A stretch of 64,000 nt of DNA from an uncultured Gammaproteobacteria bacterium (GCA_964635045.1 CAZWMJ010000003.1:12011-76010); one strand, 5' to 3'; shown: positions 1 through 62,472, counted from the stretch's first letter. Notes: a model not told the origin generated them from the sequence alone. Program-made: numbers and translations.

Positions 1-815
1 GCCACAACCACCTGTCAGCTTTACTGCTATTTGCCATCCCCATCGCCTTTTACTTTTTGAAAATCTATTGGCCAACCCCGCGTATTCGTTACTTGTTTCT
101 TGTTACTTGTTTCTTGTTACTTGTTAGTCTGTTTCTTACTTTAGGCCGCGCTTCGATGCTATCCCTGTTTATCGCTTCGATCATCGGTCTGTTGTTGGTG
201 AAACTAACTGTTAAACAGCGGATGGCGATAGCATTGACTATAGGAATTTTATTCACTCTTTTTGCTCTGCCGTTTGGCTTTGGCTTTGTCAAGAATAACT
301 TCCCCGCCAAAGCGAAAGTGGACATCGCAAGACAAGATATAAACAGGCCTTTGTACTGGAGGTGGGCGGTTAAGAATCTCACCTTCCATCCTTATTTTGG
401 CACGGGCCTTGATACTTTCGGCAAAGTCAGCAAAGTGTCCTCTTTTCTGGAGAAATCAACAGCTTTGCGCTCGGATCACGTTCACAACTTTTTCCTGCAA
501 ATGCTCTCCGACGCCGGCATTTTTGGCTTCCTAACCAGCACCATTCTTATCTCCTCCGTTCTATGGCAAGCGCTAAGAAAGTTCAAAGTTCAAAGTTCCC
601 CGGCCTCGCCAAGCGAAGCGGGGCGGGCAAAGTTGAAAGTTGAAGAACGAAGTTTTTATTTAGCTCTCTTTGTTGGCTTATTCGCTTCAACGCTTAACGC
701 TTTGGTTGACTACGACTGGCAGCTTCCCAGCGTATTTTTAATTTTCTGGATGATGGGGGGAATGCTCACTTCTGCCAGCCAAGACGTCTGGCCGCGAAGA
801 GAAGTAGAAGATTGA
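1..815 (+). CDS. O-antigen ligase/Wzy-like polytopic membrane protein, C-terminal part. The frame is open from base 1, so the gene is truncated by the window edge.
   Basis: Frame 3 is open from position 3 through the TTG at 57 to the stop at 815. The product has multiple TM helices. It contains in-frame heptamer repeat tracts at 88-126 and 577-652. Confidence 0.45.
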   Translation, partial: HNHLSALLLFAIPIAFYFLKIYWPTPRIRYLFLVTCFLLLVSLFLTLGRASMLSLFIASIIGLLLVKLTVKQRMAIALTIGILFTLFALPFGFGFVKNNFPAKAKVDIARQDINRPLYWRWAVKNLTFHPYFGTGLDTFGKVSKVSSFLEKSTALRSDHVHNFFLQMLSDAGIFGFLTSTILISSVLWQALRKFKVQSSPASPSEAGRAKLKVEERSFYLALFVGLFASTLNALVDYDWQLPSVFLIFWMMGGMLTSASQDVWPRREVED

Positions 816-1407
816 TTGGCAAGTAAACGAAAAACCCAAGCAGGCCTGTTACAAAAAATATTCGAAGCGAAGCCGGCTCAAATTGGTAAAAGTATGAAAA
901 ATAAAGACTGCAGCTGCCAACTCTTTCTCTTTGAATGCAGTTAATGTTTTCTGTACTGTCTGAAAAAATAAAGGAAAGCATGCCGATTATTAGTACATAA
1001 AAGGTCGCTCCAATCCAACCATGCGGATGAATCATGCGTGTCAAAAGAATTCCGGTAATAAGAGCAGGGATTATAGTAAGATGGTGCATGGTGACAACAA
1101 ATCTAAACGTGGGAAACGAGGGAGCGAAGGCGTAGGCGGCAACTTTGGTTGGGTCGCTTTGGAAAAAAATATTTCCCAAAAAACTCGGTATGTACATACC
1201 TTCCGGTATCAATAGAGCGCAGAACATAGCGGTAAGAAGGAAGCGGTTTCGTGTAAAAAGTCCAATTGTTGTTAAACCCAGTCCTGTTGAGGAAAGCCAG
1301 AAAATTCTTGATGGAGTGCCAAGAACAAATATCTTAAGGATGAAATCGGCAATCCAAAAAGCTCCCGTGACCAAACCAAGATAAAATAACGGGTCTTTCA
1401 GTTTCAT
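766..1407 (-). CDS. Polytopic membrane protein of unknown function
   Basis: A 213-aa ORF, strongly hydrophobic with at least 5 predicted TM helices. No recognisable catalytic motif. Confidence 0.35.
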   Translation of the reverse strand: MKLKDPLFYLGLVTGAFWIADFILKIFVLGTPSRIFWLSSTGLGLTTIGLFTRNRFLLTAMFCALLIPEGMYIPSFLGNIFFQSDPTKVAAYAFAPSFPTFRFVVTMHHLTIIPALITGILLTRMIHPHGWIGATFYVLIIGMLSFIFSDSTENINCIQRERVGSCSLYFSYFYQFEPASLRIFFVTGLLGFFVYLPINLLLLFAARRLGWQK

Positions 1408-1876
1408 TTTTTAATTGTACAACAAAAGTTTTTTCTTATCCATCCCGCGTTTATCGAATGGGCCACGGCCTTGAGTTTACCGAATGGGCTGGATTTTTTA
1501 GAAGCGGTCGAATATAATAGTAAATAGCAATCAATGTTTGAGTCAATAAAACAAATTTCTATACTTATTTCAAAAACTGACAAAATTTGGTTAATCCCAA
1601 TTTTACTTTTGCTTGTAATCATTGTGTTTTTAATTATAAGCGCGCAGATTACTCCCGTTCCAATATTTCTATACCCAATTATATGAGAAATACTATCCGC
1701 TGGATGAATCTGCTCTTTGTGTTAATCCTCTTGATTTTTTTTTACTTTGTTGTTGTCGGAATATCTTCAATAATTTACAGAATAGTAACTAATAGAAAAA
1801 ACAGGGAAAGCACTTCATACTGGAAAAACGCGAAAAAACAGATATTCAATAAAAAATATTTTGAATTTACCTACTG

Positions 1877-7668: not shown

Positions 7669-9131
7669 GAAGAGGTTTTTCTATGTTGGGAAAGTATATT
7701 GATGAGAAGCCCTACTAGAAAAAAGAAAAGTAATCCAACACGATCAGTAAATAATCGTGGTTCCCATACGCCTCGAGTTACGAATGTAAGGAAGCAAACG
7801 AATAGTCCAATAGCAAGAAGCTTATGTTCACCTCTTAATGATCGTATTCCTTTCATAAAGTTCCGCATAATTTCAGCTATGATAGCCAATAAGAGTAATA
7901 GACCGAAAAACCCTAGTTCACTTGTGACTAAAAGATAAGTATTATGAACGGATGCTGGAAACCGTTGTGAAAGAAGATCATCTGTAAAATCATATGTAGT
8001 AAAAAAGATTGGGAAATTACCTCCTCCAATACCCAATAAAGGTGCGTATTGAATTGTATATTGGGCCTGTCTAATTAACTCTATTCTTACATTTAAACTC
8101 TCGTCATCCAAGGAAAAATTGACAAATCTATTAATAATAAATGGATTAAACAATGTTAATGTCATAAGAATAAATAACCAGATGATAAATTTTCTAACCG
8201 CCCCTTCCCAAAAGACCTTATGGGGTCTATTAATTCTTATTATGAGTACAAAAGTAATAAGTATGGAAAATATAGCTATTGCTGCCCCCCATCGAGATAA
8301 TGTAGCGATAATTATCATAACGCCAGCTATAGAGCCCATGATTGAGATAAGTCTTAGTGTAATATTCTGGTGAAATATCATTACAATGCTAACAGGTAAG
8401 AGAATACCAATATAAGCACTTAAAAGATTTGGATGTGAAAATGTGCCAATTGTTCTGAAGTATGGGTTGTCATTTATATATATCAAACTTCGTATAGAGA
8501 GTATAGTTTCTGCATTCTCGATTGGAATTCCAATCAAGCCGCCTTTTACGAATTGCATAGCTGTTATGATTGCTTCAAATACTATTGTACCTACAAGTGC
8601 ATAGATAATACCTCGGAGATCTTTTTGCGCCAGTGTTAGACGCGAGAATACGAGATATACCATAAGACCGTAGATTAGTTTTAACAACCATACGAGTGAT
8701 GCTTGAATGTTAAAACTAAAGATCGTGGATAATTCTGCGAGTGCAAGGAACAGGAAAAGTAGAATCTCAAGTCTCACTGCAAGAAAAGTACTTTTACGTT
8801 TGTAGTATTGATAGATAAGTATCATAATTAGTGGTAAGAAAAGTATGATAGATAACGAGATATTGATTCCAAATTGTCTATTGTTTAATACGCTTGCGGA
8901 GTCAAGCCTTGGGGTGGTAACGGTTGTCAGCTGCAAATCAGATTCAGTTGGTCCTATAGGTAATGCTAAAACAAACAAAAATATCAATATTAATTTCCAG
9001 GGGAGTTTTTTTAAGGATAAAATAAGAGAACTGGACTGGAAAAGTCTGAAAAGATGAAATGAGGAAACAGAATTAAGCAGTTTGTTAGACAGCTTGAAAA
9101 ATGAATTGATCAGCAGACTTTGATTATCCAT
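7659..9131 (-). CDS. O-antigen ligase (Wzy_C)-family polytopic membrane protein
   Basis: 490 aa with about 10-12 TM helices and a central periplasmic loop containing ...RWGAAIAIFSIL..., typical of O-antigen ligase/polymerase family. Confidence 0.6.
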   Translation of the reverse strand: MDNQSLLINSFFKLSNKLLNSVSSFHLFRLFQSSSLILSLKKLPWKLILIFLFVLALPIGPTESDLQLTTVTTPRLDSASVLNNRQFGINISLSIILFLPLIMILIYQYYKRKSTFLAVRLEILLFLFLALAELSTIFSFNIQASLVWLLKLIYGLMVYLVFSRLTLAQKDLRGIIYALVGTIVFEAIITAMQFVKGGLIGIPIENAETILSIRSLIYINDNPYFRTIGTFSHPNLLSAYIGILLPVSIVMIFHQNITLRLISIMGSIAGVMIIIATLSRWGAAIAIFSILITFVLIIRINRPHKVFWEGAVRKFIIWLFILMTLTLFNPFIINRFVNFSLDDESLNVRIELIRQAQYTIQYAPLLGIGGGNFPIFFTTYDFTDDLLSQRFPASVHNTYLLVTSELGFFGLLLLLAIIAEIMRNFMKGIRSLRGEHKLLAIGLFVCFLTFVTRGVWEPRLFTDRVGLLFFFLVGLLINILSQHRKTSSYQ

Positions 9132-11805: not shown

Positions 11806-11907
11806 TCAGGGTCCTGTCGCGGGTTCCTTTCCCGCCAGTGCTCGTTCTAGTGAAGCAAGCTTCAACGAACTGCGCGCTGTCGGGAGCCCTTCCACCCGCG
11901 CCACCCC
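11806..11907 (+). repeat. RPE-like ~100-bp repeat element, copy A
   Basis: Core gggtcctgtc...cagtgctcgttctagtgaagcaagcttcaacgaactgcgcgctgtcgggagccc shared with the 26342, 28307 and 63659 copies. Flanked by direct repeats tttttactcgcg (11775-11786 and 11913-11924). Confidence 0.7.
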
Positions 11908-11980
11908 TCGCTTTTTTACTCGCGTCACCCGCCCTGCTTACCTAACTTCTGTGACAAGTGTAACACTTATTGTCAATTTT

Positions 11981-14135: not shown

Positions 14136-14138
14136 CTT

Positions 14139-14933: not shown

Positions 14934-16075
14934 ACGATTATTTGGTGGCTTCTTATCCGAATCGGGGAGTGACATTTGTGTCAGGGGCGGGACCATATTT
15001 TTTGGACCAAAACAAAGTGAAATATCTTGATTTGGGAAGCAATTACGGCGTTAATATTTTCGGTTTCACTCACCCAAGAATAACAAAAGCTTTGGAAATT
15101 CAGCTGGGTAAAATTACCAACATTCACGGTTCGTTTGGCAGTGATGTCAGAAGTCGCGCGGCAGAAGAGCTGGTTAAGCGCTGTGGCGGAGGGCTTGCCC
15201 GGGTTTTTTTCTCCAATTCAGGTTCGGAAGCGATAGAGGCGGCGATTAAATTTGCCCATCTGTTTAGCGGTAAATCTCATTTTGTCGCCATGGAAAATGG
15301 CTATCATGGGAAGACATTGGGAGCGTTATCGGCTACAGGTAGCGGAAAATATCGCGTTCCCTTCCTGCCGCTGTTGTGGAATTTCAGCCATGTTGTTTTT
15401 GGCGATCAAAATTCCTTAAAGAAAAGTATTCGTCCGGACACGGCCGCTATTATTCTGGAACCGATTCAGGGAGAGGGAGGAATTGTTCTTCCTCCAAAAG
15501 GCTATCTTAAATTTGCGCAAAAACTGTGTCAAGAAAAAGGCATACTTTTGATTACCGATGAAATTCAAACAGGGTTGGGCAGGACCGGCACTTTTTTGGC
15601 AGGCGAGCAGGACAATTTAACGCCCGATATTCTGTGTTTGGGAAAAGGACTGGCAGGAGGAATTCCGATTGGAGCAACGCTCACGACAGAAGAAATTGCC
15701 CAAAAAATACCGCTTCATGTTCACACATCGACATTCAGCGGCAATCCACTCTCCTGCGCCGGCGTTTTGGCGGTTTTGAAAGAATTTGAAGACGGAAAAG
15801 TGCTTGCTCATGTCAGAGAAACAGGAGAATATTTTTTATCAGAGCTTAAAAAAATAAAACATCCAAAGATTGTAGCGGTTCGGGGAATTGGTTTGATGTT
15901 GGCAATAGAATTATCGGAGAATGCCACTCCCGTTCTTAAAGCTTTACAGAATGAAAAAATCATCGCCATTCCGGCCGGAGCAAATATCATTCGTTTCCTG
16001 CCCTCATACCTGATTACCAAAAAAGAAATAGACAGGGCAGTTTCAGTTTTACGAACTATTTTTAATAACTTTTGA
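14930..16075 (+). CDS. argD: Class-III PLP aminotransferase (acetylornithine aminotransferase ArgD/LysJ)
   Basis: GSEAIEAAIKFA, LITDEIQTGLGRTG, FSGNPLSCAGVLAVL are class-III aminotransferase blocks. 381 aa. 4-nt overlap with the upstream gene. Confidence 0.85.
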   Translation: MNDYLVASYPNRGVTFVSGAGPYFLDQNKVKYLDLGSNYGVNIFGFTHPRITKALEIQLGKITNIHGSFGSDVRSRAAEELVKRCGGGLARVFFSNSGSEAIEAAIKFAHLFSGKSHFVAMENGYHGKTLGALSATGSGKYRVPFLPLLWNFSHVVFGDQNSLKKSIRPDTAAIILEPIQGEGGIVLPPKGYLKFAQKLCQEKGILLITDEIQTGLGRTGTFLAGEQDNLTPDILCLGKGLAGGIPIGATLTTEEIAQKIPLHVHTSTFSGNPLSCAGVLAVLKEFEDGKVLAHVRETGEYFLSELKKIKHPKIVAVRGIGLMLAIELSENATPVLKALQNEKIIAIPAGANIIRFLPSYLITKKEIDRAVSVLRTIFNNF

Positions 16076-16108
16076 GCTTTAAGCTTTGCGCTTTGAGCTT
16101 TATTTACC

Positions 16109-16789
16109 GTGTGCAGATTTTTACTTGTCAGATCAGAAAAAAAGATAAAGCCGCAAAAATTACTTAGCCAGTTTGCCAGCATGTGTCAAAAAAGCCGGGC
16201 GCCGGACGGGGATTGGCAGGGAGACGGATGGGGAATGGCATACAAAACTCAAAACTCAAAACTCAAAACTCAAAACTGGCAAATACATAAATCACTAAAG
16301 CCGATATGGGAGGAACGAGATAAATTTGGGCAGTTTGAAGAAACCAATGTATTTGTAGCTCATGCCAGAAGCGCCGGCTTCCCGCAACACAAAGGAAATA
16401 TTGCGTTTAATCAGCCTTTTATCGATAATGACCTGTGTTTTGTTTTTAACGGTCTGATTCGTGGTGTCACCGTTCAAAGAAAACTCAAAGGAGAAATCGG
16501 GGCGCAGAAGATTTTTAGTCTTATTCTTGAGGAGTTAGGTAGCAGTAAACCCGATGAGGTTCTTAAAACAGTTGACAAGTTGATTGTTGCCAACTCCAAA
16601 AAAATTACGGGGATGAATATCGGCTTGGCCAGAAATAACAAATTTTACCTTTTGTGCGAGTATGACGGTAACGCTTCTTATTTTGCTGTCAGATATTTTC
16701 AAAACAATGATTTAACGATTGTTTGTTCGGAACCAATCGGCAAATACGAGTGGAAAACAATGCAAAAAGGCGAGATTCTGGTATTGTAA
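16109..16789 (+). CDS. YafJ-type class-II glutamine amidotransferase-like Ntn hydrolase
   Basis: N-terminal Met-Cys nucleophile (MCRFLLV). DGDWQGDGWGMAY and HARSAGFP...NQPF blocks are typical of YafJ/class-II GATase domains. Contains an in-frame (AAAACTC)n tract at 16238-16275. Confidence 0.55.
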   Translation: MCRFLLVRSEKKIKPQKLLSQFASMCQKSRAPDGDWQGDGWGMAYKTQNSKLKTQNWQIHKSLKPIWEERDKFGQFEETNVFVAHARSAGFPQHKGNIAFNQPFIDNDLCFVFNGLIRGVTVQRKLKGEIGAQKIFSLILEELGSSKPDEVLKTVDKLIVANSKKITGMNIGLARNNKFYLLCEYDGNASYFAVRYFQNNDLTIVCSEPIGKYEWKTMQKGEILVL

Positions 16790-26325: not shown

Positions 26326-26341
26326 TAAATGGTGGGCTTAC

Positions 26342-26437
26342 GGGGTCCTGTCAGAAGTTTTTCCCGTCAGTGCTCGTTCTAGTGAAGCAAGCTTCAACGA
26401 ACTGCGCGCTGTCGGGAGCCCTAACTTCTGCCACCCC
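26342..26437 (+). repeat. RPE-like repeat element, copy B
   Basis: Near-identical to the 63659-63756 copy, with terminal inverted segments cagaagtt...aacttctg. Generates the spurious ORF 26264..26452. Confidence 0.75.
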
Positions 26438-36479: not shown

Positions 36480-36640
36480 AAATTAAAAGTTAAAAGTTCA
36501 AAGTTAAAAATTAAAAAAAACACTCCGAAGAGTGCGCAAAACTTGCTTCTCCTCGGTAGGCTTTATTCCTTTTGGGATCCTACTGTCTCAGGTTTGTCAC
36601 GTTTGACGTGATTTATTAAAGTTTACCACAGAGGGGAGAG
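36480..36640 (-). promoter_or_regulatory. rplJ upstream leader region with heptamer repeats and a CACGTTTGACGTG hairpin
   Basis: aattaaaagttaaaagttcaaagttaaaaattaaaaaaaa tract, then gtcacgtttgacgtgat (36597-36611). Location corresponds to the L10 autoregulatory leader in other bacteria; its structure is not verified here. Confidence 0.3.
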
Positions 36641-39079: not shown

Positions 39080-39089
39080 AATACTTCTA

Positions 39090-39205
39090 GACGATAGAAG
39101 ATAGAAAATAGAGGGTAGTTTTTTGATGCTGGAAGGTTGAAGGTAGATTTCTTGTTATCTAACTTCCATCCTCTATATTCAAAATACTATCTTCTACCAT
39201 CTATC
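39090..39205. repeat. Imperfect long inverted repeat at the boundary of the dnaA-like insertion
   Basis: atagaagatag...atagagggtag on the left, against ctctat...ctatcttctacc on the right, plus ggaagg/ccttcc sub-palindromes. Confidence 0.4.
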
Positions 39206-39268
39206 ATCTACCGTCAAAGTTATCTATTGATTTTAGCATAAAAGGGGAAAGTTATGCAATGAGGATAG

Positions 39269-50021: not shown

Positions 50022-50069
50022 CTAATTAGCCACTAGCAACTAGCCGCTAGCGTTTAGTTTGAGCCTCCT

Positions 50070-51478: not shown

Positions 51479-51736
51479 ATGGCAATGAAGTGTTTTAATT
51501 GCGGCAAGGGGGTCATGTTTGGTCGTCAGCATACGCATCATCCTGGGGTGGCGGGAGGACGATGGAAAAAAAGAGCTCCTAAAACACCGAAAATTTTCAA
51601 GCCTAATTTACATTATGCTCGTATTAAAGTTGAAGGAGGGATGAAAAGAGTCAGACTTTGCACAAAGTGCCTTAGGAGAGAGAAGAATAAACAAATTACC
51701 AATAAACCAATAAACAAATCAATGCAAAATATCTAA
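51479..51736 (+). CDS. rpmB: Ribosomal protein L28
   Basis: MAMKCFNCGK...KIFKPNLHYARIKVEGGMKRVRLCTKCLR matches the L28 pattern (C-x2-C ... PNL ... RV-x-C-x2-C). Start moved to the internal ATG at 51479. Confidence 0.6.
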   Translation: MAMKCFNCGKGVMFGRQHTHHPGVAGGRWKKRAPKTPKIFKPNLHYARIKVEGGMKRVRLCTKCLRREKNKQITNKPINKSMQNI

Positions 51737-52470
51737 ACGATTGGTAGTATTACCTTTTCAAGGTCGGGGTATCCGTTTATAAAATCTTTAACGCTCATCG
51801 GTTTTCCGCCTTCCACCTGAAGTTTTTGATGAGGCAGAAACTTAATAATCCGATTGTTGATTGTTGATTGTTGATTGTTTGAAGTTGTGATTTGGACTTT
51901 GGTCCAAACGCTGGGCCAGGGGTAATAAGCCCTGATCATTCGATCAAGAATTTCTGGCGGTGGGGGATTATTAATGTCGAAATACCCATCTTGACGGGTC
52001 AAACTTTTAGTAAAGGTGGTCCGGGAATGGTTTTGAGGCGTTAGTTTAATTTTTCCAGCAGCAAAATCCTGAATAATTTTAGGCAGAATTTCACCAGCTC
52101 GCTGAAACATTTTTTTACTCAAAGTATCAAAATTATCACTGTCAGAAAGTACTATTTCTTCTTGCCATATTATTGGTCCATGATCTACTTCCTCGTCCAT
52201 TTTAATAATGGTGATGCCGGATCTTTTGTCGCCGTTTAAGATGGCAGTTTGAATGGGCGAGGCGCCGCGGTATTTAGGTAAAAGCGATGGGTGGACATTG
52301 ATAAATCCATATTTTGGGGCATTAAGTTCTTGTTTTGTTAAAATCCTGCCATATGAAGCAACAACTCCCAGATCGGCTTCGTTTAATGAGTCAACTAGTA
52401 CAAAATGTTTTACCAGCTGGTTTTTGATGGGTTGGACAAATAATGGAGTTCCCAAAAAAACTATTTTCAT
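51733..52470 (-). CDS. fmt: Methionyl-tRNA formyltransferase
   Basis: MKIVFLGTP...FINVHPSLLPKYRGASPIQTAILNGD. Contains the in-frame (GATTGTT)4 tract at 51849-51885. Confidence 0.8.
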   Translation of the reverse strand: MKIVFLGTPLFVQPIKNQLVKHFVLVDSLNEADLGVVASYGRILTKQELNAPKYGFINVHPSLLPKYRGASPIQTAILNGDKRSGITIIKMDEEVDHGPIIWQEEIVLSDSDNFDTLSKKMFQRAGEILPKIIQDFAAGKIKLTPQNHSRTTFTKSLTRQDGYFDINNPPPPEILDRMIRAYYPWPSVWTKVQITTSNNQQSTINNRIIKFLPHQKLQVEGGKPMSVKDFINGYPDLEKVILPIV

Positions 52471-53024
52471 AACTCAATTTCTTCGAACACGTCATTGCCT
52501 TTTTTGTCTTTTTTGCTTTTGAACAGCTTTTCTTTTTGTTCCAGCACTCGTTGGGTAAAGAGAATGCCGTTGAGATGGTCTGTTTCATGCTGGATAATGG
52601 TGGCCAGAAAACCCGTGAACACACGGGTTTTAGTTGAAAGTTGAGAGTTGAAAGTTGAGAGTTGCTGATAGCGAACCTTAATTTCTTTTGCCCGATGGAC
52701 CATGCCCCAGACATTGTGGATAGAAAGACATCCTTCCAGTTTTTTCGAGCGTCTGGGAACGCCTTTTGTTTTTTCCAAAGAAACCTCAAGTATTTGCGGG
52801 TTTAGAAAAACAGAAATGGGGGATTTCAGATATGGTTTGGCAAGGAAAATTCGAAACGGACTGCCAACCTGTGGCGCCGCCAGGCCGACTCCGATTGGGT
52901 CTTTGGTTGCCAGCAAGGTTTTTTTCATTCCCTCAATTAATTCCAGAGTTTTTTTATCAATAGCTTGAACCGTCTTTGCCGGAGTAGTTAAAACCGGATT
53001 AGGCACCTTAACAATCTGCAACAT
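52467..53024 (-). CDS. def: Peptide deformylase
   Basis: GVGLAAPQVG, EGCLS, HETDHLNGILF motifs. In-frame (GTTGARA)4 tract at 52621-52660. Confidence 0.85.
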   Translation of the reverse strand: MLQIVKVPNPVLTTPAKTVQAIDKKTLELIEGMKKTLLATKDPIGVGLAAPQVGSPFRIFLAKPYLKSPISVFLNPQILEVSLEKTKGVPRRSKKLEGCLSIHNVWGMVHRAKEIKVRYQQLSTFNSQLSTKTRVFTGFLATIIQHETDHLNGILFTQRVLEQKEKLFKSKKDKKGNDVFEEIEL

Positions 53025-53210
53025 TGCCTTACATTATATCATAGAATAATTTTTATTAAAGGTCGTCATGATGTTATTATGGACGTTATTAAGGCTAGAT
53101 TTAACACCAAAAAAAGCTGCAGCTTGATTTTGTGTTAATTTTATTGTAGTGTGCATATTGTATAGTGCAATAGCGTATTTGACATTTATTAATATAATAT
53201 AGGATGTACG

Positions 53211-53834
53211 ATGGAAACAGTAGAATGGAATAAAGCATACAAAATTTTTTATAGCGATAAAGAAGCAATTCTTGCCGACCTTAAGAGAGAAGTTAACAGA
53301 TATCCTTATCTTAAGGAAATTCTTGTTATCTTAGCCGCGGGGACGCTTATTTCTGCAGCGCTTGTTATGCCGGATATTGCAAAACTTATTAACCCCAGAA
53401 TTTGGCGGGGAGAAGGTTATCGGAAAGATAGGTTGCGACAGACGCTGAAACGATTACAAAAGAAAAAACTGATAGAGGTGGTGGAGACGAAAGATGGACA
53501 GGTAGTTAAGATTACGGAAAATGGTCTAACTCGCGCCATGAAATATAAACTTGATGAGATGAAGATTAAAGAACAAAAATCATGGGATAGGAAGTGGAGG
53601 ATTGTAATTTTTGATATACCGGATGATAAAAAGAGAGTTCGTGACGAGTTTAGGGAGCGGTTAAAACAATTGGGATTTTTTCGATTGCAGGAGAGCGTTT
53701 TTGTGCATGCCTTTCCCTGTTTTGACGAGGTAGAGTTCTTGCGGCAGATTTATGAGGTTAATATCAACGTTACTTACATTCTTGCAATAACAATAGAAGG
53801 GCAAGAGGGTCTTCAAGATTTTTTCAAACTTTAA
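53211..53834 (+). CDS. PaaX-like protein: membrane/wHTH N-terminal part plus Cas2-fold C-terminal domain
   Basis: C-terminal WRIVIFDIPDDKKRVRDEFRERLKQLGFFRLQESVFV follows the Cas2/PaaX_C pattern (vvvYDv..kRR.kv.k.L..yG.rvQ.SVF). N-terminus has a hydrophobic helix and a winged-helix-like segment. No cas1 or CRISPR array nearby. Confidence 0.45.
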   Translation: METVEWNKAYKIFYSDKEAILADLKREVNRYPYLKEILVILAAGTLISAALVMPDIAKLINPRIWRGEGYRKDRLRQTLKRLQKKKLIEVVETKDGQVVKITENGLTRAMKYKLDEMKIKEQKSWDRKWRIVIFDIPDDKKRVRDEFRERLKQLGFFRLQESVFVHAFPCFDEVEFLRQIYEVNINVTYILAITIEGQEGLQDFFKL

Positions 53835-53870
53835 AGAGTTTGATTTAAAGATTTTAATTTGTCTTAAATT

Positions 53871-53982
53871 TTAGCTTCAGGTTCAACACCAATTTCAGCT
53901 GCAGCATAAATTGGTGTTGGTTTGATATTCAAATTCCGCGTAAAATCCACACCTAAAATCCAGCGGTTGGGGAAAATGGGTT
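53871..53982 (+). repeat. 112-bp direct repeat, copy 1
   Basis: 109/112 identical to 54476-54587. Contains perfect 11-bp inverted repeat aacaccaattt-cagctgcagcat-aaattggtgtt. Confidence 0.8.
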
Positions 53983-54039: not shown

Positions 54040-54450
54040 ATGGAAAGCCAGTCTGAAGCAAGGCCGAGAATTCCAGTTTCTCCTTCGGAACAAAGGCTTT
54101 TGGATCGTTTCATTCACGTTGGAGTTGCAATATTTATGGCAGGAATAGTTACAGCTAAATCTGGATTTGAAGATGAAGCCAAGTATGAAAAGCTTAACGG
54201 CGCTATCGTGGTCATGCAAACAGAACGTTCATTAGGAGAGGGAAGTCATCATGAAACAGAAGGGCCTGGGCTAGAGAAGTTGATAGAGAGACGCGATCAG
54301 TTGAGTAAGTTTGCGGATAAAAAAGCACTTTTTAGCAGTGCACTTTTTGTCTTAGGTTCTATGTTTGCTGGACTTGGAGATCGTCAGAGGAGAGGGCTTT
54401 CGATGGTGCACCCTGGAGTAGAAGAGGAATTAACGAAGAAGAGAGATTAA
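54040..54450 (+). CDS. Hypothetical protein with 2 TM helices, flanked by the 112-bp direct repeats
   Basis: 136-aa ORF. No motifs. Confidence 0.35.
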   Translation: MESQSEARPRIPVSPSEQRLLDRFIHVGVAIFMAGIVTAKSGFEDEAKYEKLNGAIVVMQTERSLGEGSHHETEGPGLEKLIERRDQLSKFADKKALFSSALFVLGSMFAGLGDRQRRGLSMVHPGVEEELTKKRD

Positions 54451-54475
54451 AAGAATTTTTTAAAGTTGAGTATAT

Positions 54476-54587
54476 TTAGCTTCAGATTCAACACCAATTT
54501 CAGCTGCAGCATAAATTGGTGTTGGTTTAATATCCAAATTCCGCGTAAAATCCACACCTAAAATCCAGCGGTTGGGGAAAATGGGTT
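54476..54587 (+). repeat. 112-bp direct repeat, copy 2
   Basis: See copy 1. Confidence 0.8.
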
Positions 54588-55148: not shown

Positions 55149-57482
55149 TCAATATCCTCTCCAGTCAAGTAATTTCTGTTTGGCTTGGGCGTCATCGGTG
55201 GCGATGTTGGTTAATATATATTGCAAAGACTCGATCGCTTTTTGCTCAAGCTCAGGCTTGACGACATTTTTTGCTTTATCCAAAGACAAATCATGGTAGA
55301 AAAGCCCAAGGGCATAGTAGGCGTCGCGGTAGTCAGGTTTGAGTTTGACTGTTTTTTCAAGAGCAGATATGGCGTCCCTGCCTTTGCCGTTTTGACCATA
55401 CAGCAATCCCAGATTGTAGAAAATTTTGGCATCGGTGGGAGCCAGCAGGCTGGCTTTTTTTACCGCCTCAAGATCCTCGGCCAGATATTTCGGGTCGGTT
55501 TGAGATAGAGCATAAAACATACGGACGCGGGTTTTCCAAAAGACAACATTGTTGGGGTGTTTCAATACAATATCGTCGCTTAAAGCAATTGCCTGCTCTT
55601 TTAATAATAATGCTTGTTGTCCGGCTTGGCTGGCAATAGTGGGATCTGTTTGATTGGCAAGCGCCGCTGCCAAAATGGCGCTATTTATAGAAAACTCATC
55701 GGCAAAGGTCGGTTCATCGCCTCGTACTTGCACGGCCTCCTGCAGTTTGGGATAGGCCTCCTGATACTGCCCAGATCGATCCAGATTGTAGCCCAAAGCG
55801 AAGGCTTTATCGGCCAGCCAGAAACGAAGCAAAGTAAATTGTAAATAAAAAATAACAAATAAAAGTATGACGATTGCCAGCCATTGATAACTTTTTATCT
55901 CTTCTTTTGGAGATACAGGAGGGTTTTGGGGTTTGATTTGCTCGTTCAGGACAAAGGCGAAGGCGGGGATGAGGAAGAAATAGAGATTGATGATGACCAC
56001 CGAGAAGCCGAAGAAGTTGGAAACTAAAATGGAGAGGTAAGCGCTCAAAAGCGCAATTTCCAATTTCCAATTTCCAATTTCCAATGATTTAGATTTGAGA
56101 TTTTTAAAGATTAGCCAAAGGAATGACCCAATCATTATAAGGTAACTTCCCAAACCAAAAATTCCAGTAGTTGCCAGATAATTTAGGTATTCGTTGTGGG
56201 CTTTGTTGTAGAGAAAATCCCATTCGCTGGTTAGATTATGATTGGTCGGGCGATACTGATAATAGGCAAAGGCGAATGTTTCAACTCCCGATCCAAAAAG
56301 GGGGTTATGGCGGGCGATATCAAGCGCTCCCTGCCAGACAAATCTGCGAATATCTCCCGACTCCGTCCCGCCGGTTTCAAGGGCAGGACCCTGTGGTTTA
56401 ACTTCTAACTGCTTACTACTAACAGCTGACTTTTTGAGACCGGAAAGAGTCCATTTATTCAATTGTTCAAAAGGAGAACCGACCACAAAAGTAATACTAC
56501 CAATAAATATAAATAAAAGTATTAAGTATTTAGTATTTAGTATTTTGTATTTGTTAATCAAACGCGTTTGCCAAATGTAGATTGCAATAAAGAAGGCTAG
56601 TCCTACCCAAAGACCCAAGAAGCCTGAGCGGGAGTTGGTGAAGAGAAAAGCGAGGTAGAATAATATAACAAGTAACACGTAACAAGTAACACGTAACAAT
56701 TTTTTTCGCGTCACGTTTTTCGTGTCACTCGCCACATTGATAACAAAAGCTATGGCAATAGGTATTAAAATAGACAAATACGCTGCCAGCCAGTTGGGCT
56801 GGCCAAGGGTGGAGAAGATGCGCACGCGCGGCTGAAAAGCCTCGGTCCAGCAGGAAACATCCAAATTTCCCCGCAGCATCAAACAAGTTGGATCATAGCC
56901 AAAATGAGAAGGCAGTCCCCAGAGAGTCACGATGAGACCGGAGATAAGACTAACAAAGAGTAATCGTTTAACCATTACTATCGCTCGGGGTTCTGCCGCT
57001 CGCTCGTCCAAAGGTGCTCCTTCTAGTGAGCCACTACTCAACGAAGATGCGCCCCTTTGGACGCCTCCGCTCGCGTCACCCCTAGCTCGATGCCATCCCT
57101 CATTAACCACAAAATTACTTAAAAAAGCGTAGTATAAAAATATATAGGAGATGATGGAAAGCAAGCCTCCGTTAAATCTTGAATAAAATCCCCAAATGGA
57201 AGTATGGGTGTCCAGAGAATGAAAAGTTGCGATAATTTGAGAAATCAGGAAAAGAATAATTGGGATATCAAGCGGTGTTCTTTGAATTGAGATTCTTCTC
57301 TGAGTAATCATTTTTACCAGCCAAGCTCCCGCAATCACCAAAGTCAGAGCAAAGGTCAGCCACATCTTGTTAAATTCAAAAAGCTCATAGGTATCCCCGG
57401 CCATGGTCAAAGGGATAAGTAAAAAGATCAGATAGAAGCAGTATTCGATGGCGCGGTTTACGATTTTGGTCAAAGTTTCCAT
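55149..57482 (-). CDS. O-antigen-ligase-like polytopic membrane protein with C-terminal TPR repeats and two in-frame repeat insertions
   Basis: Wzy_C-like loop (NSRSGFLGLWVGLAFF). C-terminal TPR (YNLGLLYGQNGKGRDAISALEKTVKLKPDYRDAYYALGLFY). Contains the (TTCCAAT)n tract at 56051-56092 and a diverged inverted RPE-like copy at ~56985-57110 encoding ...GASSLSSGSLEGAPLDERAAEP... Confidence 0.55.
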   Translation of the reverse strand: METLTKIVNRAIEYCFYLIFLLIPLTMAGDTYELFEFNKMWLTFALTLVIAGAWLVKMITQRRISIQRTPLDIPIILFLISQIIATFHSLDTHTSIWGFYSRFNGGLLSIISYIFLYYAFLSNFVVNEGWHRARGDASGGVQRGASSLSSGSLEGAPLDERAAEPRAIVMVKRLLFVSLISGLIVTLWGLPSHFGYDPTCLMLRGNLDVSCWTEAFQPRVRIFSTLGQPNWLAAYLSILIPIAIAFVINVASDTKNVTRKKLLRVTCYVLLVILFYLAFLFTNSRSGFLGLWVGLAFFIAIYIWQTRLINKYKILNTKYLILLFIFIGSITFVVGSPFEQLNKWTLSGLKKSAVSSKQLEVKPQGPALETGGTESGDIRRFVWQGALDIARHNPLFGSGVETFAFAYYQYRPTNHNLTSEWDFLYNKAHNEYLNYLATTGIFGLGSYLIMIGSFLWLIFKNLKSKSLEIGNWKLEIALLSAYLSILVSNFFGFSVVIINLYFFLIPAFAFVLNEQIKPQNPPVSPKEEIKSYQWLAIVILLFVIFYLQFTLLRFWLADKAFALGYNLDRSGQYQEAYPKLQEAVQVRGDEPTFADEFSINSAILAAALANQTDPTIASQAGQQALLLKEQAIALSDDIVLKHPNNVVFWKTRVRMFYALSQTDPKYLAEDLEAVKKASLLAPTDAKIFYNLGLLYGQNGKGRDAISALEKTVKLKPDYRDAYYALGLFYHDLSLDKAKNVVKPELEQKAIESLQYILTNIATDDAQAKQKLLDWRGY
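56985..57110 (-). repeat. Diverged RPE-like repeat element (copy F) inside a CDS
   Basis: The reverse complement gcgcatcttcgttgagtagtggctcactagaaggagcac aligns to the element core gcgcagttcgttgaagcttgcttcactagaacgagcac. It is a GC-rich island in an otherwise AT-rich gene. Confidence 0.5.
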
Positions 57483-58544: not shown

Positions 58545-59435
58545 TTATTCTTTAACGCACTTCCCCCCGGCGTCGGGGTGGGAGCTATCCAATTCGCAGG
58601 TGTATTCTGTCGGACACTTTGCATCGGTAATCCTCCCGCAAGATTGACCTGATTCTATTTTTAATATGCATATGCCATCGGCACATTCCTTATCGTTTTG
58701 AATGATTTCATCTTTCGGGATTATTGCTGATTTTTGATTAGAATCTATAAATTTAAAGGTGGAGAGAATTTGATCCAATAATTTTATGTTATTTACCGGA
58801 TCTTCATAAAAGACAAACTGAATTATTTTGTCGCTTATAGAAAAAGATACTTCTTGATGGTAGGTGCCTGCAAGATATTGATTTTCCGGGATTATTCCGC
58901 TGACTTTGACAGCATTAACACCGTCAATAATTATGTTTTCGCTCTTTAGATATTTATCTTGCTGTGGATAGCCAGCTTTTTGAAATTCGTTTTTATTCCA
59001 AATTGCAACAGTTACAAGCGCAAATGGTCCTTCGTTGACCTCGTTGATATCAATATCGTTTTCTGTTAAAAAAATCTGGTCGCCAAATTTTGGTGATTGT
59101 TTTAAGTATACCGTTGGCGGATATCTAAATTGGAATTTATATTTCTCGTCCTTATACGTTTTCCAGTTGGCAGTTGGGTCTGTGGTGGGGGTTGGAGTTA
59201 GTGGAGAGGAAGGCTTGATTGAAGTTTGCGGAGAAGGTTTCGGGGTTTGTTTATTTGCTTGATTTTTAACAGCGGACATGATTACTGTGGAAAAGATGAC
59301 AACAATAATTAATATTATTAAAATCAAGTTTAACGGAAATATTTTGGGAGAGGGCGGTTGAGTGGAGAGAACCGGAGATGGAGCAACAGGAACCGGATTG
59401 ACAGGAACCTGGGGCTGCGGCAAATTTTCTTCCAT
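58545..59435 (-). CDS. Type-II membrane surface protein with Pro-rich N-terminus and Cys-rich C-terminal module (paralog 1)
   Basis: The N-terminal 58 aa and C-terminal ~75 aa are near-identical to the 59863..60789 product. The central ~160 aa are unrelated. Confidence 0.5.
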   Translation of the reverse strand: MEENLPQPQVPVNPVPVAPSPVLSTQPPSPKIFPLNLILIILIIVVIFSTVIMSAVKNQANKQTPKPSPQTSIKPSSPLTPTPTTDPTANWKTYKDEKYKFQFRYPPTVYLKQSPKFGDQIFLTENDIDINEVNEGPFALVTVAIWNKNEFQKAGYPQQDKYLKSENIIIDGVNAVKVSGIIPENQYLAGTYHQEVSFSISDKIIQFVFYEDPVNNIKLLDQILSTFKFIDSNQKSAIIPKDEIIQNDKECADGICILKIESGQSCGRITDAKCPTEYTCELDSSHPDAGGKCVKE

Positions 59436-59588
59436 AACTTTACTTTACCATATTGGGAAAATGAGAGCAAGGAAAGATATTATCGGCGATGAGATTTAGA
59501 AGATAGTTTGTAGGCGATATAAAGAAGAAGTCCTGTGATTAGAACTAGAGATACGGCGATTTGTGCAATAGCATTACTAACCCAAAAA

Positions 59589-59807
59589 TTATTCATTTTC
59601 TAACTTTTTCTCAAACAACACTGTTAATAGTAAGAATATTGTACCCAAGGCAATGTCTGCTGTCAATATGAAGATGTCATATATGCTTTGGGGAAGCGAA
59701 ATTGCTGATCCGACAAACGGGACTACAAAGAAAGCGGCAGATATGTTAATTGATAAACCAGAAAGAGCTTTAAGCCAAGGATTGGTTAAAACTATTCTCA
59801 TAAACAA
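59589..59807 (-). CDS. Small 2-TM membrane protein between the paralogs
   Basis: 72-aa hydrophobic ORF. Weak. Confidence 0.2.
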   Translation of the reverse strand: MFMRIVLTNPWLKALSGLSINISAAFFVVPFVGSAISLPQSIYDIFILTADIALGTIFLLLTVLFEKKLENE

Positions 59808-59862
59808 TTTTATCAGGTATTAACCTTACTTTAACATATTGGCAAAAGGGGAGCAAGATTTT

Positions 59863-60789
59863 CTAATAAATTCTAACGCATTTCCCTCCGGCGTCGGGGT
59901 GGGATCCATCTAATTCGCAGGTGTATTCTGTCGGACACTTTGCATCGGTAGTCCTCCCGCAAGATTGACCTGATTCTATTTTTAATATGCATATACCATC
60001 GGCACATTCCTTATCGTTTTGAATAACTTTATCTTTCGGGGTTATTGCTGATTTTTGATTAGAATCTATAAATTTAAAGGTGGAAAGGATTTGATCCAAT
60101 ATTGACAACAGCTCTTTATCGTAGTTAATAGGAGTTTCATACCATGTTTTTCCAAATCCGGCTGCCGTTGAGAACATTTCTAAATTAGGTTCTTTTTTAC
60201 ATATAGTCCATATTAGATTATTGGTTGAAGCTGATTCGGTGGTTTTGGGTCTTCTAAAGGTAAATTCAGCAGCTTTTATTTCGACAAAATCTTTGAATTT
60301 GTCAGACGGAATTTCGGATGGTGGACTATCCGGGAATCGGCAAACATCTGGTCCCCAAGCCATTGGGTTATAGCTCCTAAAAACGTGACCATTCTTGGAG
60401 ATTGAAATATCTTGACTAAGTTGAATGTTTCCATCTTTATAGAGATCTACTTCTTTTGACTTGTCTTCTAAAACCCAACTTTCCGGATACTTGATTGAGG
60501 ATTTGCCGTCTTTAATGATGTAAGTTTTCCAATTTGCTGTTGAATCTGGCGTGAGAGTTGGTGTGGATGTGGGGGATGGTTGGATAGATGGCGATGGGGT
60601 TTGTTTATTTGGTTGATTTTTAACAGCGGACATGATTACTGTGGAAAAGATGACAACAATAATTAATATTATTAAAATCAAGTTTAACGGAAATATTTTG
60701 GGAGAGGGCGGTTGAGTGGAGAGAACCGGAGATGGAGCAACAGGAACCGGATTGACAGGAACCTGGGGCTGCGGCAAATTTTCTTCCAT
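59863..60789 (-). CDS. Type-II membrane surface protein with Pro-rich N-terminus and Cys-rich C-terminal module (paralog 2)
   Basis: See paralog 1. The 5' ~200 nt (60590-60789 versus 59236-59435) are identical at the nucleotide level. Confidence 0.5.
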   Translation of the reverse strand: MEENLPQPQVPVNPVPVAPSPVLSTQPPSPKIFPLNLILIILIIVVIFSTVIMSAVKNQPNKQTPSPSIQPSPTSTPTLTPDSTANWKTYIIKDGKSSIKYPESWVLEDKSKEVDLYKDGNIQLSQDISISKNGHVFRSYNPMAWGPDVCRFPDSPPSEIPSDKFKDFVEIKAAEFTFRRPKTTESASTNNLIWTICKKEPNLEMFSTAAGFGKTWYETPINYDKELLSILDQILSTFKFIDSNQKSAITPKDKVIQNDKECADGICILKIESGQSCGRTTDAKCPTEYTCELDGSHPDAGGKCVRIY

Positions 60790-60884
60790 AACTTTACTTT
60801 ACCATATTGGCAAAAGACTAACAAGCTGTTAGAATACTACCAAATCCAAATAAACAAATAAACCAATCAATAAGTTAATGTTTA

Positions 60885-61262
60885 ATGAAAAATATAGAGA
60901 AAATAAAGGATATCCATGAAAGAATTTACCAGTTTGTAGTGCGTGTTCTAAAAGTTACTAAAGAGCTTCCAAAAACACCTCAAAACATCATTCTTATAGA
61001 ACAGCTTACAAAATCAGCGACATCAATGGGAGCTAATGATCAAGAAGCTGATGGGACGGATAGTAGGAAAGATTTTATTGCCAAATATGCCATTGTTCGA
61101 AAAGAAAGTAAAGAGACTAATTTCTGGTTATTATTAATTTCTGACACTAACCTGCCTTTGATAAGAGCAAAAGCATTAGAAATACTTCAGGAAGGACAAG
61201 AAATAGTTGCTATTGTTAGTAGCATTTTAAATAAAACTCGAAATTACAAAAAAAATTCATGA
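60885..61262 (+). CDS. Four-helix-bundle protein (23S rRNA intervening-sequence protein family)
   Basis: 125 aa. IYQFVVRVLKVTKELPKT...LTKSATSMGANDQEADGTDSRKDFIAKYAIVRKESKETNFWLLL fits the four-helix-bundle family pattern. Confidence 0.55.
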   Translation: MKNIEKIKDIHERIYQFVVRVLKVTKELPKTPQNIILIEQLTKSATSMGANDQEADGTDSRKDFIAKYAIVRKESKETNFWLLLISDTNLPLIRAKALEILQEGQEIVAIVSSILNKTRNYKKNS

Positions 61263-61281
61263 TGGTAACTTTACTGTTTTA

Positions 61282-62472
61282 TTGGTAGTATTGGTATGTA
61301 TTGGTAGTATTTTTATGTTAAATCGTTTTTTCTCTCTTTTTTCTCACGACATCGGGATCGATTTGGGGACTTCCAATACTCTGGTTTATGTTACCGGCCG
61401 CGGCATTGCCATTCGCGAACCCTCAGTGGTGGCTCTGCACAAAAAGACCAAAAAAATTATTGCCATTGGCACGGAAGCGAAAAAAATGGTTGGTAAAACG
61501 CCGGCCACCATCACAATAGTCAAACCGCTTCGAAGCGGAGTGATTTCCGATTTTGACGTGACGACGGCCATGATTTCCCATTACATCAAAAAAGTTCACG
61601 AGACCGGCGCCCTCATGCCGTCTTTTGCCAGACCAAAGGTGGTTATTGGTATTCCCTCATCAGTTACCGAAGTAGAAAGAAGAGCTGTGTGGGAGGCGGC
61701 GCTGGTGGCAGGGGCGCGCGAGGCCTTTCTTATCGAAGAACCGATGGCGGCGGCCATTGGCGAAGGCGTGTCTGTTTTTGCTCCGACAGGGGTGATGGTG
61801 GTTGACATAGGAGGAGGGACGACTGAAATTGCTATTATTTCTCTGGGAGGGATTGTGGTGGGAAAGTCGTTTCGGATGGCCGGAAACGAGATGGATCAGG
61901 CGATTTTGCATTATGTCAGACTCCGTCATGGATTGCTGCTGGGGGAGCCGACGGCGGAGGAGTTAAAGATAAAGATTGGCAGTGTATATAAAAGTAACTC
62001 AAAAGTCAAAACTCAAAAGTCAAAACTCAATCAGGTAGAGTTAGATGGAGCAAACTTAAAACAGGAAGAGGGGGAGGGGGGGGAGAAAGTTGTAACGGAG
62101 GTGGAAAGGGGAGAGAAAATGGCAATTGTTCGGGGACGAGACATAGAAACGGGACTACCCAAAAGCATCCGTCTCAACGAGACAGAGGTGAGAGAGGCTT
62201 TGGCGCCGGTTATTAGCAGAATCATTGAAGAAATCGCCGATGTTTTAGAAGAGGCGCCGCCCGAGCTGGTGGGCGATATTTTGGAACACGGCATTTTGTT
62301 AACAGGAGGAGGGGCAATGCTGAGCGGATTTGATCACTTAATTATGGAGAGGACTCATATGCCGGTAATTATTGCAGCGGATCCTCTCACCGCTGTGGTT
62401 CGGGGGGCGGGAAAGGTGCTGGAAGATTCTGCTTTTTTACAGCGGGTAAAAGTAACAGGCGGTTTAAAGTAA
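61282..62472 (+). CDS. mreB: MreB paralog with large in-frame insertions, first gene of mreBCD
   Basis: IGIDLGTSNTLVY, VVDIGGGTTE, LTGGGAML. Possible true start at MLNRFF (61315). About 45-aa insertion including the (AAAAGTC/AAAACTC)n tract 61983-62030. Confidence 0.8.
   Translation: MVVLVCIGSIFMLNRFFSLFSHDIGIDLGTSNTLVYVTGRGIAIREPSVVALHKKTKKIIAIGTEAKKMVGKTPATITIVKPLRSGVISDFDVTTAMISHYIKKVHETGALMPSFARPKVVIGIPSSVTEVERRAVWEAALVAGAREAFLIEEPMAAAIGEGVSVFAPTGVMVVDIGGGTTEIAIISLGGIVVGKSFRMAGNEMDQAILHYVRLRHGLLLGEPTAEELKIKIGSVYKSNSKVKTQKSKLNQVELDGANLKQEEGEGGEKVVTEVERGEKMAIVRGRDIETGLPKSIRLNETEVREALAPVISRIIEEIADVLEEAPPELVGDILEHGILLTGGGAMLSGFDHLIMERTHMPVIIAADPLTAVVRGAGKVLEDSAFLQRVKVTGGLK

Follow-up and report, generated by a model that had tools for sequence, protein, structure and literature searches.

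The DNA segment described here, a window of 64,000 nt (GCA_964635045.1, CAZWMJ010000003.1:12011-76010, filed under an uncultured Gammaproteobacteria bacterium), carries in nine of its genes short tandem arrays of heptanucleotides, which are crossed by the reading frames. Judging from the ArgS homologues, the source is a bacterium of the Microgenomates group within the Candidate Phyla Radiation (CPR, or Patescibacteria): the nearest relatives bear the labels Microgenomates, Levybacteria and Roizmanbacteria, and the top non-self match is 68-69% identical. The window is 88.5% coding. The genes hosting the arrays, recognized by Pfam matches, encode a GATase_4 protein (16109-16789), ArgS (16798-18597), an M16 peptidase (18621-19895), MreB (61282-62472), two Wzy-type proteins and, on the minus strand, ribosomal protein L10 (35928-36473), Fmt (51733-52470) and Def (52467-53024). 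Heptanucleotide tract segments amount to 22, of which 16 are coding and 6 intergenic. Arrays and the GC-rich segments interrupting or adjoining them are the following:

88-126, plus strand: GTTACTT/GTTTCTT array of 5.6 units in perfect 14-nt alternation, Wzy-like gene (57-815); encodes the hydrophobic stretch rylflvtcflllvs
578-598, plus strand: AAAGTTC, three units, Wzy-like gene; left half of an array which a GC-rich element splits
599-628, plus strand: 30-nt GC-rich element CCCGGCCTCGCCAAGCGAAGCGGGGCGGGC between heptamer units, variant of the CCCCAC...GCGGGGCAAG family, Wzy-like gene
629-644, plus strand: AAAGTTG, 2.3 units, right half of the split array, Wzy-like gene
16071-16101, no strand assigned: TTTGAGC, 4.4 units, spanning the stop codon of an aminotransferase gene into the spacer; the unit has TGA
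16243-16277, plus strand: CAAAACT, 5.0 perfect units, in frame, GATase_4 (YafJ-like) gene
16942-16991, plus strand: argS site 1, AATTCAA, 4.3 perfect units, followed by units of the AAAACTC/AAAAGTC type; ArgS residues 49-65
17038-17063, plus strand: argS site 2, AATACCA/AATACTA, 3.7 units; ArgS residues 81-89; in phase with the arrays of loci L082 and L084
17380-17397, plus strand: argS site 3, left part, AACTTAG, 2.6 units; array common to locus L001
17398-17427, plus strand: 30-nt GC-rich mini-element CCCCACTTCGCTAAAGCTTCGCGGGGCAAG in argS site 3; L001 is without it
17428-17441, plus strand: argS site 3, right part, CAGAACTCAGAACT, continuation of the array
18283-18309, plus strand: argS site 4, AGAATTC, 3.9 perfect units, starting from conserved Ala-Lys codons
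18309-18339, plus strand: hairpin TAGCCTCGCAAGGT-CTC-ACCTTGCGAGGCTA with a perfect 14-bp stem, adjoining the array of argS site 4, in frame
19595-19625, plus strand: (AATTTCC)4AAT in a loop of the M16 peptidase, 11 codons
35894-35917, no strand assigned: AGCAACT-type array, 3.4 units, between rplJ and rplL; the unit has TAG
36257-36291, minus strand: (GGAAATT)5, perfect on the sense strand, rplJ (L10)
36480-36517, no strand assigned: TTAAAAG-type array, 5 units, intergenic, upstream of rplJ; the unit has TAA
39088-39112, no strand assigned: TAGAAGA-type array, 3.6 units, intergenic, upstream of a dnaA-like gene, in an inverted pair
39187-39210, no strand assigned: CTATCAT-type array, 3.4 units, inverted partner of 39088-39112
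50027-50051, no strand assigned: TAGCCAC-type array, 3.6 units, spacer between tRNA-Tyr and tRNA-Thr
51852-51879, minus strand: (AACAATC)4, perfect on the sense strand, fmt
52632-52664, minus strand: alternating CAACTCT/CAACTTT array, 4.7 units, def, 11 aa
56054-56085, minus strand: (GGAAATT)4.6 on the sense strand, Wzy-TPR gene; 33 nt identical to the M16 array
56517-56552, minus strand: AAATACT, 5 units on the sense strand, Wzy-TPR gene; the unit has TAA, and the would-be in-frame stop is patched
56666-56699, minus strand: alternating CTTGTTA/CGTGTTA array, 4.9 units, Wzy-TPR gene; encodes the hydrophobic stretch llrvtcyvllvi
61996-62030, plus strand: alternating AACTCAA/AAGTCAA array, 5 units, mreB2

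The window was searched with Tandem Repeats Finder (TRF), with lag-7 scans of our own, with an exact-periodicity scan and with an imperfect-match scan, and 20 dinucleotide-preserving shuffles of the window served as null model. Nine perfect arrays of at least three copies occur at period 7, against 0.0 expected from the shuffles; in the exact-periodicity scan of the window no such array was found at any other period between 4 and 15. The imperfect-match scan of the window detected 15-16 arrays at period 7, 6 at period 14, which are identical loci, and none at further periods. Four window arrays show perfect ABABA alternation of two units one base apart, hence a 14-nt period. Per base, intergenic DNA is about 2.4-fold enriched in tracts in the window (binomial p = 0.03). 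Most tracts are nonetheless coding, 16 of 22 in the window (73%), 69 of 83 and 39 of 48 in the wider sets described below. Every host open reading frame (ORF) of the window is intact, and the frames pass right through the arrays. Rfam and ARAGORN searches of the window found only tRNAs, and no array resides within a tRNA.

These results bear out the central observation of an earlier note on this DNA, that tandem 7-mer tracts are kept in frame within coding sequences, as TRF and lag-7 scans match essentially all the coordinates listed there. The positions are real, though several coordinates had to be corrected, and the array in the YafJ-like gene has 5.0 units rather than four. Its list was incomplete: rplJ was named without the coordinates now given (36257-36291), and the arrays at 19595-19625 (M16 peptidase) and 56054-56085 (Wzy-TPR) were omitted. 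Among intergenic tracts, 36480-36517 and 16071-16101 (given as 16076-16108) had been noticed, while 35894-35917, 39088-39112, 39187-39210 and 50027-50051 had not. Moreover, three of the tracts are composite: about 30 nt of each (599-628, 17398-17427 and 18309-18339) are GC-rich and non-periodic. Repeats are prone to mis-assembly, and the source is a metagenome-assembled genome. However, the arrays do not exceed 50 nt, which is below read length, leave reading frames intact, and turn up again at orthologous sites of dozens of genomes that many projects assembled independently. An assembly or sequencing artefact is very unlikely, and its probability practically negligible.

Two wider sets of sequences were analysed. 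The first, representing relatives, consists of 80 argS-centred loci, one genome per species, for a total of 1.25 Mb (loci are named L001 and so on); the second, independent, of 120 metagenome contigs (0.82 Mb) fetched by an unrelated sequence pattern. The relatives' loci contain 61 period-7 tracts; period 8 accounts for 5, period 9 for 1, and periods 5, 6, 10 and 11 for none. Similarly, 48 period-7 tracts were found in the metagenome set, against 0-4 at each other period from 4 to 12. Period-7 tracts number 21.9 per 100 kb in the window, 8.0 in the closer half of the loci, and 1.8 in distant Patescibacteria of the Parcubacteria and Saccharibacteria types. The excess belongs to the Microgenomates-type clade, the window genome lying at the high end, and is not characteristic of this genome alone, as had been supposed.

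The lengths of perfect arrays are bimodal. Chance-like decay from 14 to about 21 nt is followed by a gap, with few arrays at 22-27 nt, and by a second mode at 28-35 nt, corresponding to 4-5 units; periods 6, 8 and 9 have no 28-35 nt mode. When both data sets are pooled, 74% of coding and 43% of non-coding arrays fall into this range. Arrays of about 25 nt, which at 3.5 copies correspond to a frameshifting +14, are in turn scarce among coding arrays (7%) and frequent among non-coding ones (35%; Fisher p = 0.0014). Stop trinucleotides are dealt with differently inside and outside genes. All six intergenic units of the window include one. Coding arrays are instead made of units that are stop-free in three frames, or are too short for an in-frame stop, or are patched. 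A stop-containing unit is found in 15 of 74 coding arrays, and 18 of 18 would-be in-frame stops have been lost by exactly one base change, as in AACTTAG-AACTTAG-AACTAAG, found in L001 argS and in an unrelated gene of L018; the count is partly circular, tracts having been picked within open frames, and shows only that stop-containing units get used. The sense strand is A-rich in arrays of soluble proteins and T-rich in Wzy membrane segments. A replication-strand bias was considered and discarded: GC skew is positive over the whole window, yet the orientation of the arrays tracks that of the genes. The short DnaA-like gene which follows the inverted array pair of 39088-39210 (39269-40390, 373 aa, Bac_DnaA and Bac_DnaA_C domains) is probably not at a replication origin, since GC skew does not change sign there.

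Since gain or loss of one 7-nt unit shifts the frame, and two of the hosts are surface-polysaccharide (Wzy-type) genes, one may wonder whether the arrays are contingency loci, in which variation in unit number switches genes on and off. In the contingency loci of Haemophilus and Neisseria, made of simple sequence repeats (SSRs), changes in copy number switch the frame of dispensable surface or restriction genes. The resemblance is limited to the presence, in or near genes, of short tandem repeats with a unit that is not a multiple of 3. Hosts are mostly essential, single-copy genes (argS, def, fmt, rplJ), and mreB is also among the hosts. The arrays have only 4-5 units, the frameshifting length class is depleted among coding arrays, and all the array-bearing ORFs inspected, in the window and in relatives, are intact. 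Phase variation is thus highly improbable, and the argument that tracts in essential genes speak against its classical form, already made in the earlier note, holds.

Coding arrays are confined to disordered loops or membrane segments. The AlphaFold model of ArgS has a mean predicted local distance difference test score (pLDDT) of 85.8, and pLDDT drops below 50 only at residues 52-62, 198-212 and 498-510. These three regions fall within tract sites 1 (49-65), 3 (195-215) and 4 (496-515, array plus hairpin), which are disordered in the model; site 2 (residues 81-89) lies in a confident part of it. The array of Def aligns to a short variable segment between the VRYQ and GFLA stretches, where it adds 5 aa net in comparison with solved deformylases. 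Compared with solved structures of MreB, MreB2 has an extra loop segment of about 37 aa with abundant Glu, Gly and Lys, and the array resides there. The window hosts another mreB paralogue (26570-27595), which is canonical, 341 aa long, and gives one uninterrupted Pfam match; the paralogue at 61282-62472 carries the heptamer array. A 9-mer tandem repeat, TATTGGTAG, 3.4 units long, is found at 61280-61311, directly upstream of the likely ATG of mreB2 (61315). The same motif ends a 147-nt insertion located just upstream of ndk in L001 (about 7940-7975), which is absent from L082.

How arrays change in time can be grasped by comparing orthologous sites. In the M16 peptidase, arrays are found at the same loop in the window (AATTTCC), in L001 (AATTCGA, same phase) and in L028 (CAAATCA), and about 13 other orthologues are non-periodic. 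The loop of the window and that of L001 have 11 codons, as many as in the non-periodic majority. All three units start with the locally conserved AAAAT[TC] codons, and the peptides of close relatives are wholly different (RISNFQFPISN and KIRSSKFEIRN). In L10, the array region of 13 aa replaces the native loop, with a net gain of 1 aa relative to the Bacillus subtilis protein. Among 112 L10 homologues of the Microgenomates type, 48 have a loop with 7-aa periodicity and 49 do not, and the median loop length is 20 residues in both groups; identity at lag 7 concerns 16% of residue pairs in the L10 loop, against 5-10% at lags 4-10. Two argS sites tell a similar story. At site 2, an AAATACY array shared with other loci is lengthened in L082 by three clustered substitutions, and no indel. 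At site 4, arrays with a 7-nt or 14-nt period begin at one conserved pair of Ala-Lys codons in about 20 of 38 loci. Their units go from AAAAGTC to CGAAGCA, the latter in a genome of 50% GC; relatives are in phase, and carry different homogenised variants. The distant L048 has the same unit and phase as the window.

Since orthologues share position and phase and carry lineage-specific homogenised units, the arrays may be regarded as old, position-stable hotspots, whose units appear to be replaced together, at a pace exceeding that of point mutation. These comparisons modify two proposals of the earlier note. The tracts had been described as peptide inserts, which fits some net insertions (L082 site 1, MreB), but not the M16 and L10 arrays, which overwrite native sequence with practically no change in length. 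One-off mini-insertion does not account for the arrays, which relatives have in common both in position and phase; actual mini-insertions are represented by the separate 30-nt GC-rich elements inside the three composite tracts. As to the possibility that distant orthologues have the same peptides without periodicity at the DNA level, the reverse is found: peptides differ by lineage, and DNA periodicity persists.

Close comparison rests on three loci, L001, L082 and L083. L001 and L082 are 100% identical over kilobases on either side of a 5'-terminal argS block, some 600 nt long (L001 3540-4090), in which identity falls to 53-90%. Within the block the two loci carry different arrays, and both block ends are at tract sites. 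This single case suggests homologous recombination of tract-bearing segments, or import of a divergent allele, arrays serving as possible junctions. At argS site 3, between conserved flanks, L001 has a pure AACTTAG array, L082 a CAAATCT array with a central GC palindrome, and L083 a longer hairpin element. Window and L001 are near-identical at this site, but horizontal transfer need not be invoked: the whole argS core is 80-95% identical, and shared ancestry is enough.

The GC-rich segments found in the three composite tracts belong to a distinct family. The element CCCCACTTCGC-N4-GCTTCGCGGGGCAAG gave at least 120 metagenome matches in at least 114 distinct contexts; occurrences are at 599-628 and 17398-17427 in the window, at 4823-4866 in L001, and in the metagenome loci L085-L204. 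Among the 114 contexts listed, 71 copies are exactly 30 nt long, 96 have a length multiple of 3, 98 lie within ORFs, which are unrelated to one another, on either strand, and only 6 are flanked by heptamer arrays, 108 being free of them. The modal 30-nt form has only a short CCCC/GGGG stem; longer variants have an inner palindrome. Encoded peptides are PHFAxASRGK in one frame and TPLR...GFAGR in another. The phase of the array runs unbroken across the element at 599-628. There is no target-site duplication: once the elements at 599-628 and 17398-17427 are deleted, the array becomes continuous and in phase again, and no unit is duplicated. The hypothesis that arrays are footprints or flanks of the GC element, or of hairpins, was rejected on these grounds, given that just 6 of the 114 listed copies touch an array. 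A generic scan for GC-rich islands proved non-specific (137 islands).

By analogy with known families, the 30-nt sequence looks like a separate selfish mini-element of CPR genomes, seemingly undescribed, which shares permissive loops with the arrays and resembles Rickettsia palindromic elements (RPEs). RPEs are selfish DNA residing in frame within protein-coding genes, about 150 bp long, which form dispersed families and encode a conserved peptide (PMC10969869). The likeness, which concerns especially the 30-nt element, is that repeated DNA is tolerated in frame in unrelated housekeeping ORFs, at fold-compatible positions. On the other hand, the 30-nt element is not a palindrome of about 100-150 bp, and heptamer arrays are tandem, with a unit that varies from site to site and is apparently made locally. 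Two Y1_Tnp genes (PF01797, IS200/IS605 or RAYT type) reside in L084 (8467-9084 and 12718-13407), less than 8 kb from argS, and their products are candidate mobilisers of the GC-rich hairpin elements. No transposase, Y1 (RAYT) enzymes included, was detected by Pfam in about 60 ORFs of the 64-kb window.

The evidence on mechanism is comparative throughout. Within these terms, we consider it probable, with reservations, that a mutational process peculiar to the clade would create, and re-homogenise, short arrays in a 7-nt register, and that its products would be filtered by selection. According to this view, a local seed heptamer would overwrite about 30 nt by copying out of register, by 7 or 14 nt, either in a length-neutral manner or by whole-unit steps; slippage (with return), template switching or gene conversion between misaligned units could all be at work. 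Purifying selection would purge products with a frameshift, a stop or damage to the fold, and survivors would appear as if deliberately placed in frame. In essential genes, arrays would form or change in a single step, either by length-neutral overwriting or by 21 nt, because +7 and +14 intermediates would be null alleles. The encoded peptides would be tolerated by-products, not selected modules. Templated copying is favoured over unit-by-unit expansion by the length-neutral loops, the shared phase, the local seeds, the concerted unit changes and the ABAB patterns. The proposal in the earlier note of a replication or repair peculiarity is hence retained, as a peculiar mutational mechanism is the best reading of an excess restricted to period 7 and of concerted arrays in phase.

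Several data weigh against this reading. In the first place, clear net insertions exist, as the 30 nt gained at argS site 1 in L082, and the MreB loop; and length neutrality could also reflect insertion followed by compensating deletion, under selection on loop length. Secondly, recurrence of units exceeds chance: the 83 tracts hold 55 distinct units, against a mean of 78.6 for random draws (minimum 71 in 2000 trials), though the figure is partly inflated, as argS-centred loci include orthologous arrays. AATTTCC/GGAAATT occurs in three unrelated window genes and at four other loci, and an identical 31-nt form, (AATTTCC)4AAT, is found in three contexts (L010, L028 and the window). Recurrent units are more readily explained by a pre-formed cassette, or by a sequence-specific process, than by random local seeding. 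In addition, the narrow 28-35 nt mode is not expected from simple in-place spreading. No transposase, reverse transcriptase, Ku/LigD or unusual polymerase was revealed by Pfam among the approximately 60 ORFs of the window, which thus encodes no candidate enzyme. Finally, every tract-bearing window protein is a singleton in clusters at 90% identity, with no relatives at or above that level.

The narrow size mode and the recurrent units keep alive the hypothesis that pre-formed cassettes of about 30-33 nt, or 4-5 heptamers, either mobile or copied ectopically from other arrays, enter permissive sites in the manner of the 30-nt GC-rich element, perhaps with the aid of its machinery, for instance a transposase of the Y1/RAYT type. 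The 30-nt insertion in L082 argS, the presence in the same loops of a genuinely mobile 30-nt element, and the Y1_Tnp genes of L084 could be read in the same sense. Yet, M16 and L10 arrays replace native sequence and leave length unchanged, arrays start with locally conserved codons, and orthologues are in phase but carry different units. Furthermore, the three AATTTCC copies of the window lack conserved termini and flanks, units are counted by the dozen, including GC-rich ones in GC-rich genomes, and the window has no transposase. Cassettes are, on the whole, an unlikely source of the arrays.

Alternatively, arrays could be selected for a function, as tunable disordered linkers, surface peptides with 7-residue periodicity, DNA or RNA signals such as binding sites for a protein, or junctions for the recombination of loop cassettes. 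Persistence of arrays at the same site over deep divergence is compatible with this notion, as are the conservation of the argS site 2 peptide NTKYQI.NT, in a region modelled with confidence, the location at tract sites of both ends of the divergent argS block of L082, and the inverted array pair upstream of the dnaA-like gene. However, peptides at the same site are completely different in close relatives, as the two M16 loops quoted above illustrate, arrays lie in segments with pLDDT below 50, and non-periodic orthologues work with loops of equal length. The many units found in one genome make a single binding protein unlikely, and evidence of recombination comes from one case. We regard selection for function as distinctly improbable.

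A bolder version of the mutational process may be imagined, to which we assign a low probability. A dedicated enzyme, specific to the clade, for example a primase-polymerase that "stutters" or a repair polymerase that fills gaps and has a 7-nt footprint, might, where mismatch correction is lacking, turn about 30 nt at a time, in place, into 4-5 copies of a local heptamer, and the arrays might double as junctions for the exchange of loop "cassettes" between co-occurring lineages. If this were true, episymbiotic bacteria would be equipped with a built-in system diversifying protein surfaces, those of essential proteins included, and the same principle might account for the heptamer repeats of cyanobacteria, which have long lacked an explanation.

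Other repeats and insertions populate the window. In rplA (37761-38657, minus strand), which encodes an L1 protein of 298 aa with a Pfam match limited to residues 170-288, a 92-nt GC-rich hairpin (38458-38549, dG about -39 kcal/mol) suggests that a palindrome was inserted in frame into this gene for an essential ribosomal protein; period-9/18 repeats are found at 38366-38432 and 38568-38605. A GC-rich segment of about 125 nt (56981-57107), encoding HRARGDASGGVQRGASSLSSGSLEGAPLDERAAEPRA within the AT-rich membrane-protein gene Wzy-TPR (minus strand), is probably another GC-rich inserted element. A 105-nt intergenic repeat is present in four copies, 73-96% identical (11810-11914, 26342-26446, 28308-28412 and 63661-63765), sharing the core AAGCTTCAACGAACTGCGCGCTGTCGGGAGCCCT; it has no Rfam match, and could be a leader, promoter or terminator module. 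The short motif GGGTCCTGTCAGAAGTTTTTC is found at 26335, 27600 and 63654. A 113-nt repeat (53870-53982 and 54475-54587, 97% identical), which includes the palindrome CAACACCAATTTCAGCTGCAGCATAAATTGGTGTTG, flanks an ORF at 54040-54450 and adjoins a gene with a Cas2-like/PaaX_M domain (53211-53834), upstream of which lies a related palindrome (53096-53143). Two tandem paralogues (58545-59435 and 59863-60789, minus strand), neither of which matches Pfam, have in common blocks of 228 and 241 nt, 94-95% identical, and a 48-nt motif is conserved upstream, three times in the region 58545-60836; they are the product of recent duplication or of ongoing gene conversion.

Several repeat systems offer terms of comparison, the nearest analogue being that of cyanobacteria, which reportedly host short tandemly repeated repetitive (STRR) heptamer sequences with embedded small dispersed repeats (SDRs), as attributed to Elhai and colleagues in 2008; SDRs are said to be about 20-30 nt long, GC-rich and mobile, and to reside within heptamer arrays and genes without destroying them. 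Units characteristic of STRRs are CCCCAGT, TTGGTCA and CAACAGT, and none of these is present in the unit lists compiled here. The existence of several tandem heptamer families per lineage, and of tiny GC-rich elements inside arrays, makes the two systems alike. The 2008 study of Elhai and colleagues is cited in PMC3116915. The phylum and the units are different, however, and the GC element is associated with arrays in just 6 of the 114 copies listed. Pervasive, fast-evolving, A-rich tandem repeats are also a feature of Borgs, which belong to an uncultivated lineage, and form disordered protein segments in ORFs, where unit lengths are all divisible by three (PMC9879509). Heptamer arrays similarly give disordered segments (ArgS sites 1, 3 and 4), but with a unit of 7 the frame survives only if total length fits or if replacement is length-neutral, and the peptides repeat every 7 aa.

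A further parallel is the excess of heptanucleotide SSRs described in some bacteria by Mrázek et al. (2007), which, as summarised in PMC4692102, concerns only period 7 and is lineage-specific. In the same summary, Xanthomonas and Nostoc are credited with intergenic G-rich GGGNATC/GGGGAYT arrays, able to form G-quadruplexes, which vary extensively between close relatives, and a "footprint" of polymerase slippage is proposed, 7 nt being the DNA segment at the polymerase active site (PMC4692102). The footprint idea would be compatible with the present data. To the extent of that account, the cases agree in that the unit is exactly 7, the sole over-represented period, in a lineage-specific manner, and differ in that the arrays described here are 73% genic in the window, essential genes included, A/T-rich, made of 4-5 units and often length-neutral. 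No published description of heptanucleotide arrays in CPR bacteria was found in a literature search. An excess of period-7 SSRs is thus already known, and what is new is that arrays are coding, in frame, often length-neutral and concerted, across an uncultivated clade.

To our knowledge, the heptanucleotide excess has been noted for decades in a few bacterial lineages, always as a curiosity of intergenic DNA and with no mechanism to explain it. The essential-gene setting described here acts as a natural filter exposing the process, which would be one-step, often length-neutral, locally seeded, and homogenising faster than point mutation. The mechanism thereby becomes testable. For the annotation of CPR genomes, and for phylogenies based on alignments, this would mean that apparent lineage-specific "inserts" and low-complexity loops may be products of DNA periodicity, which evolve in concert and not residue by residue.

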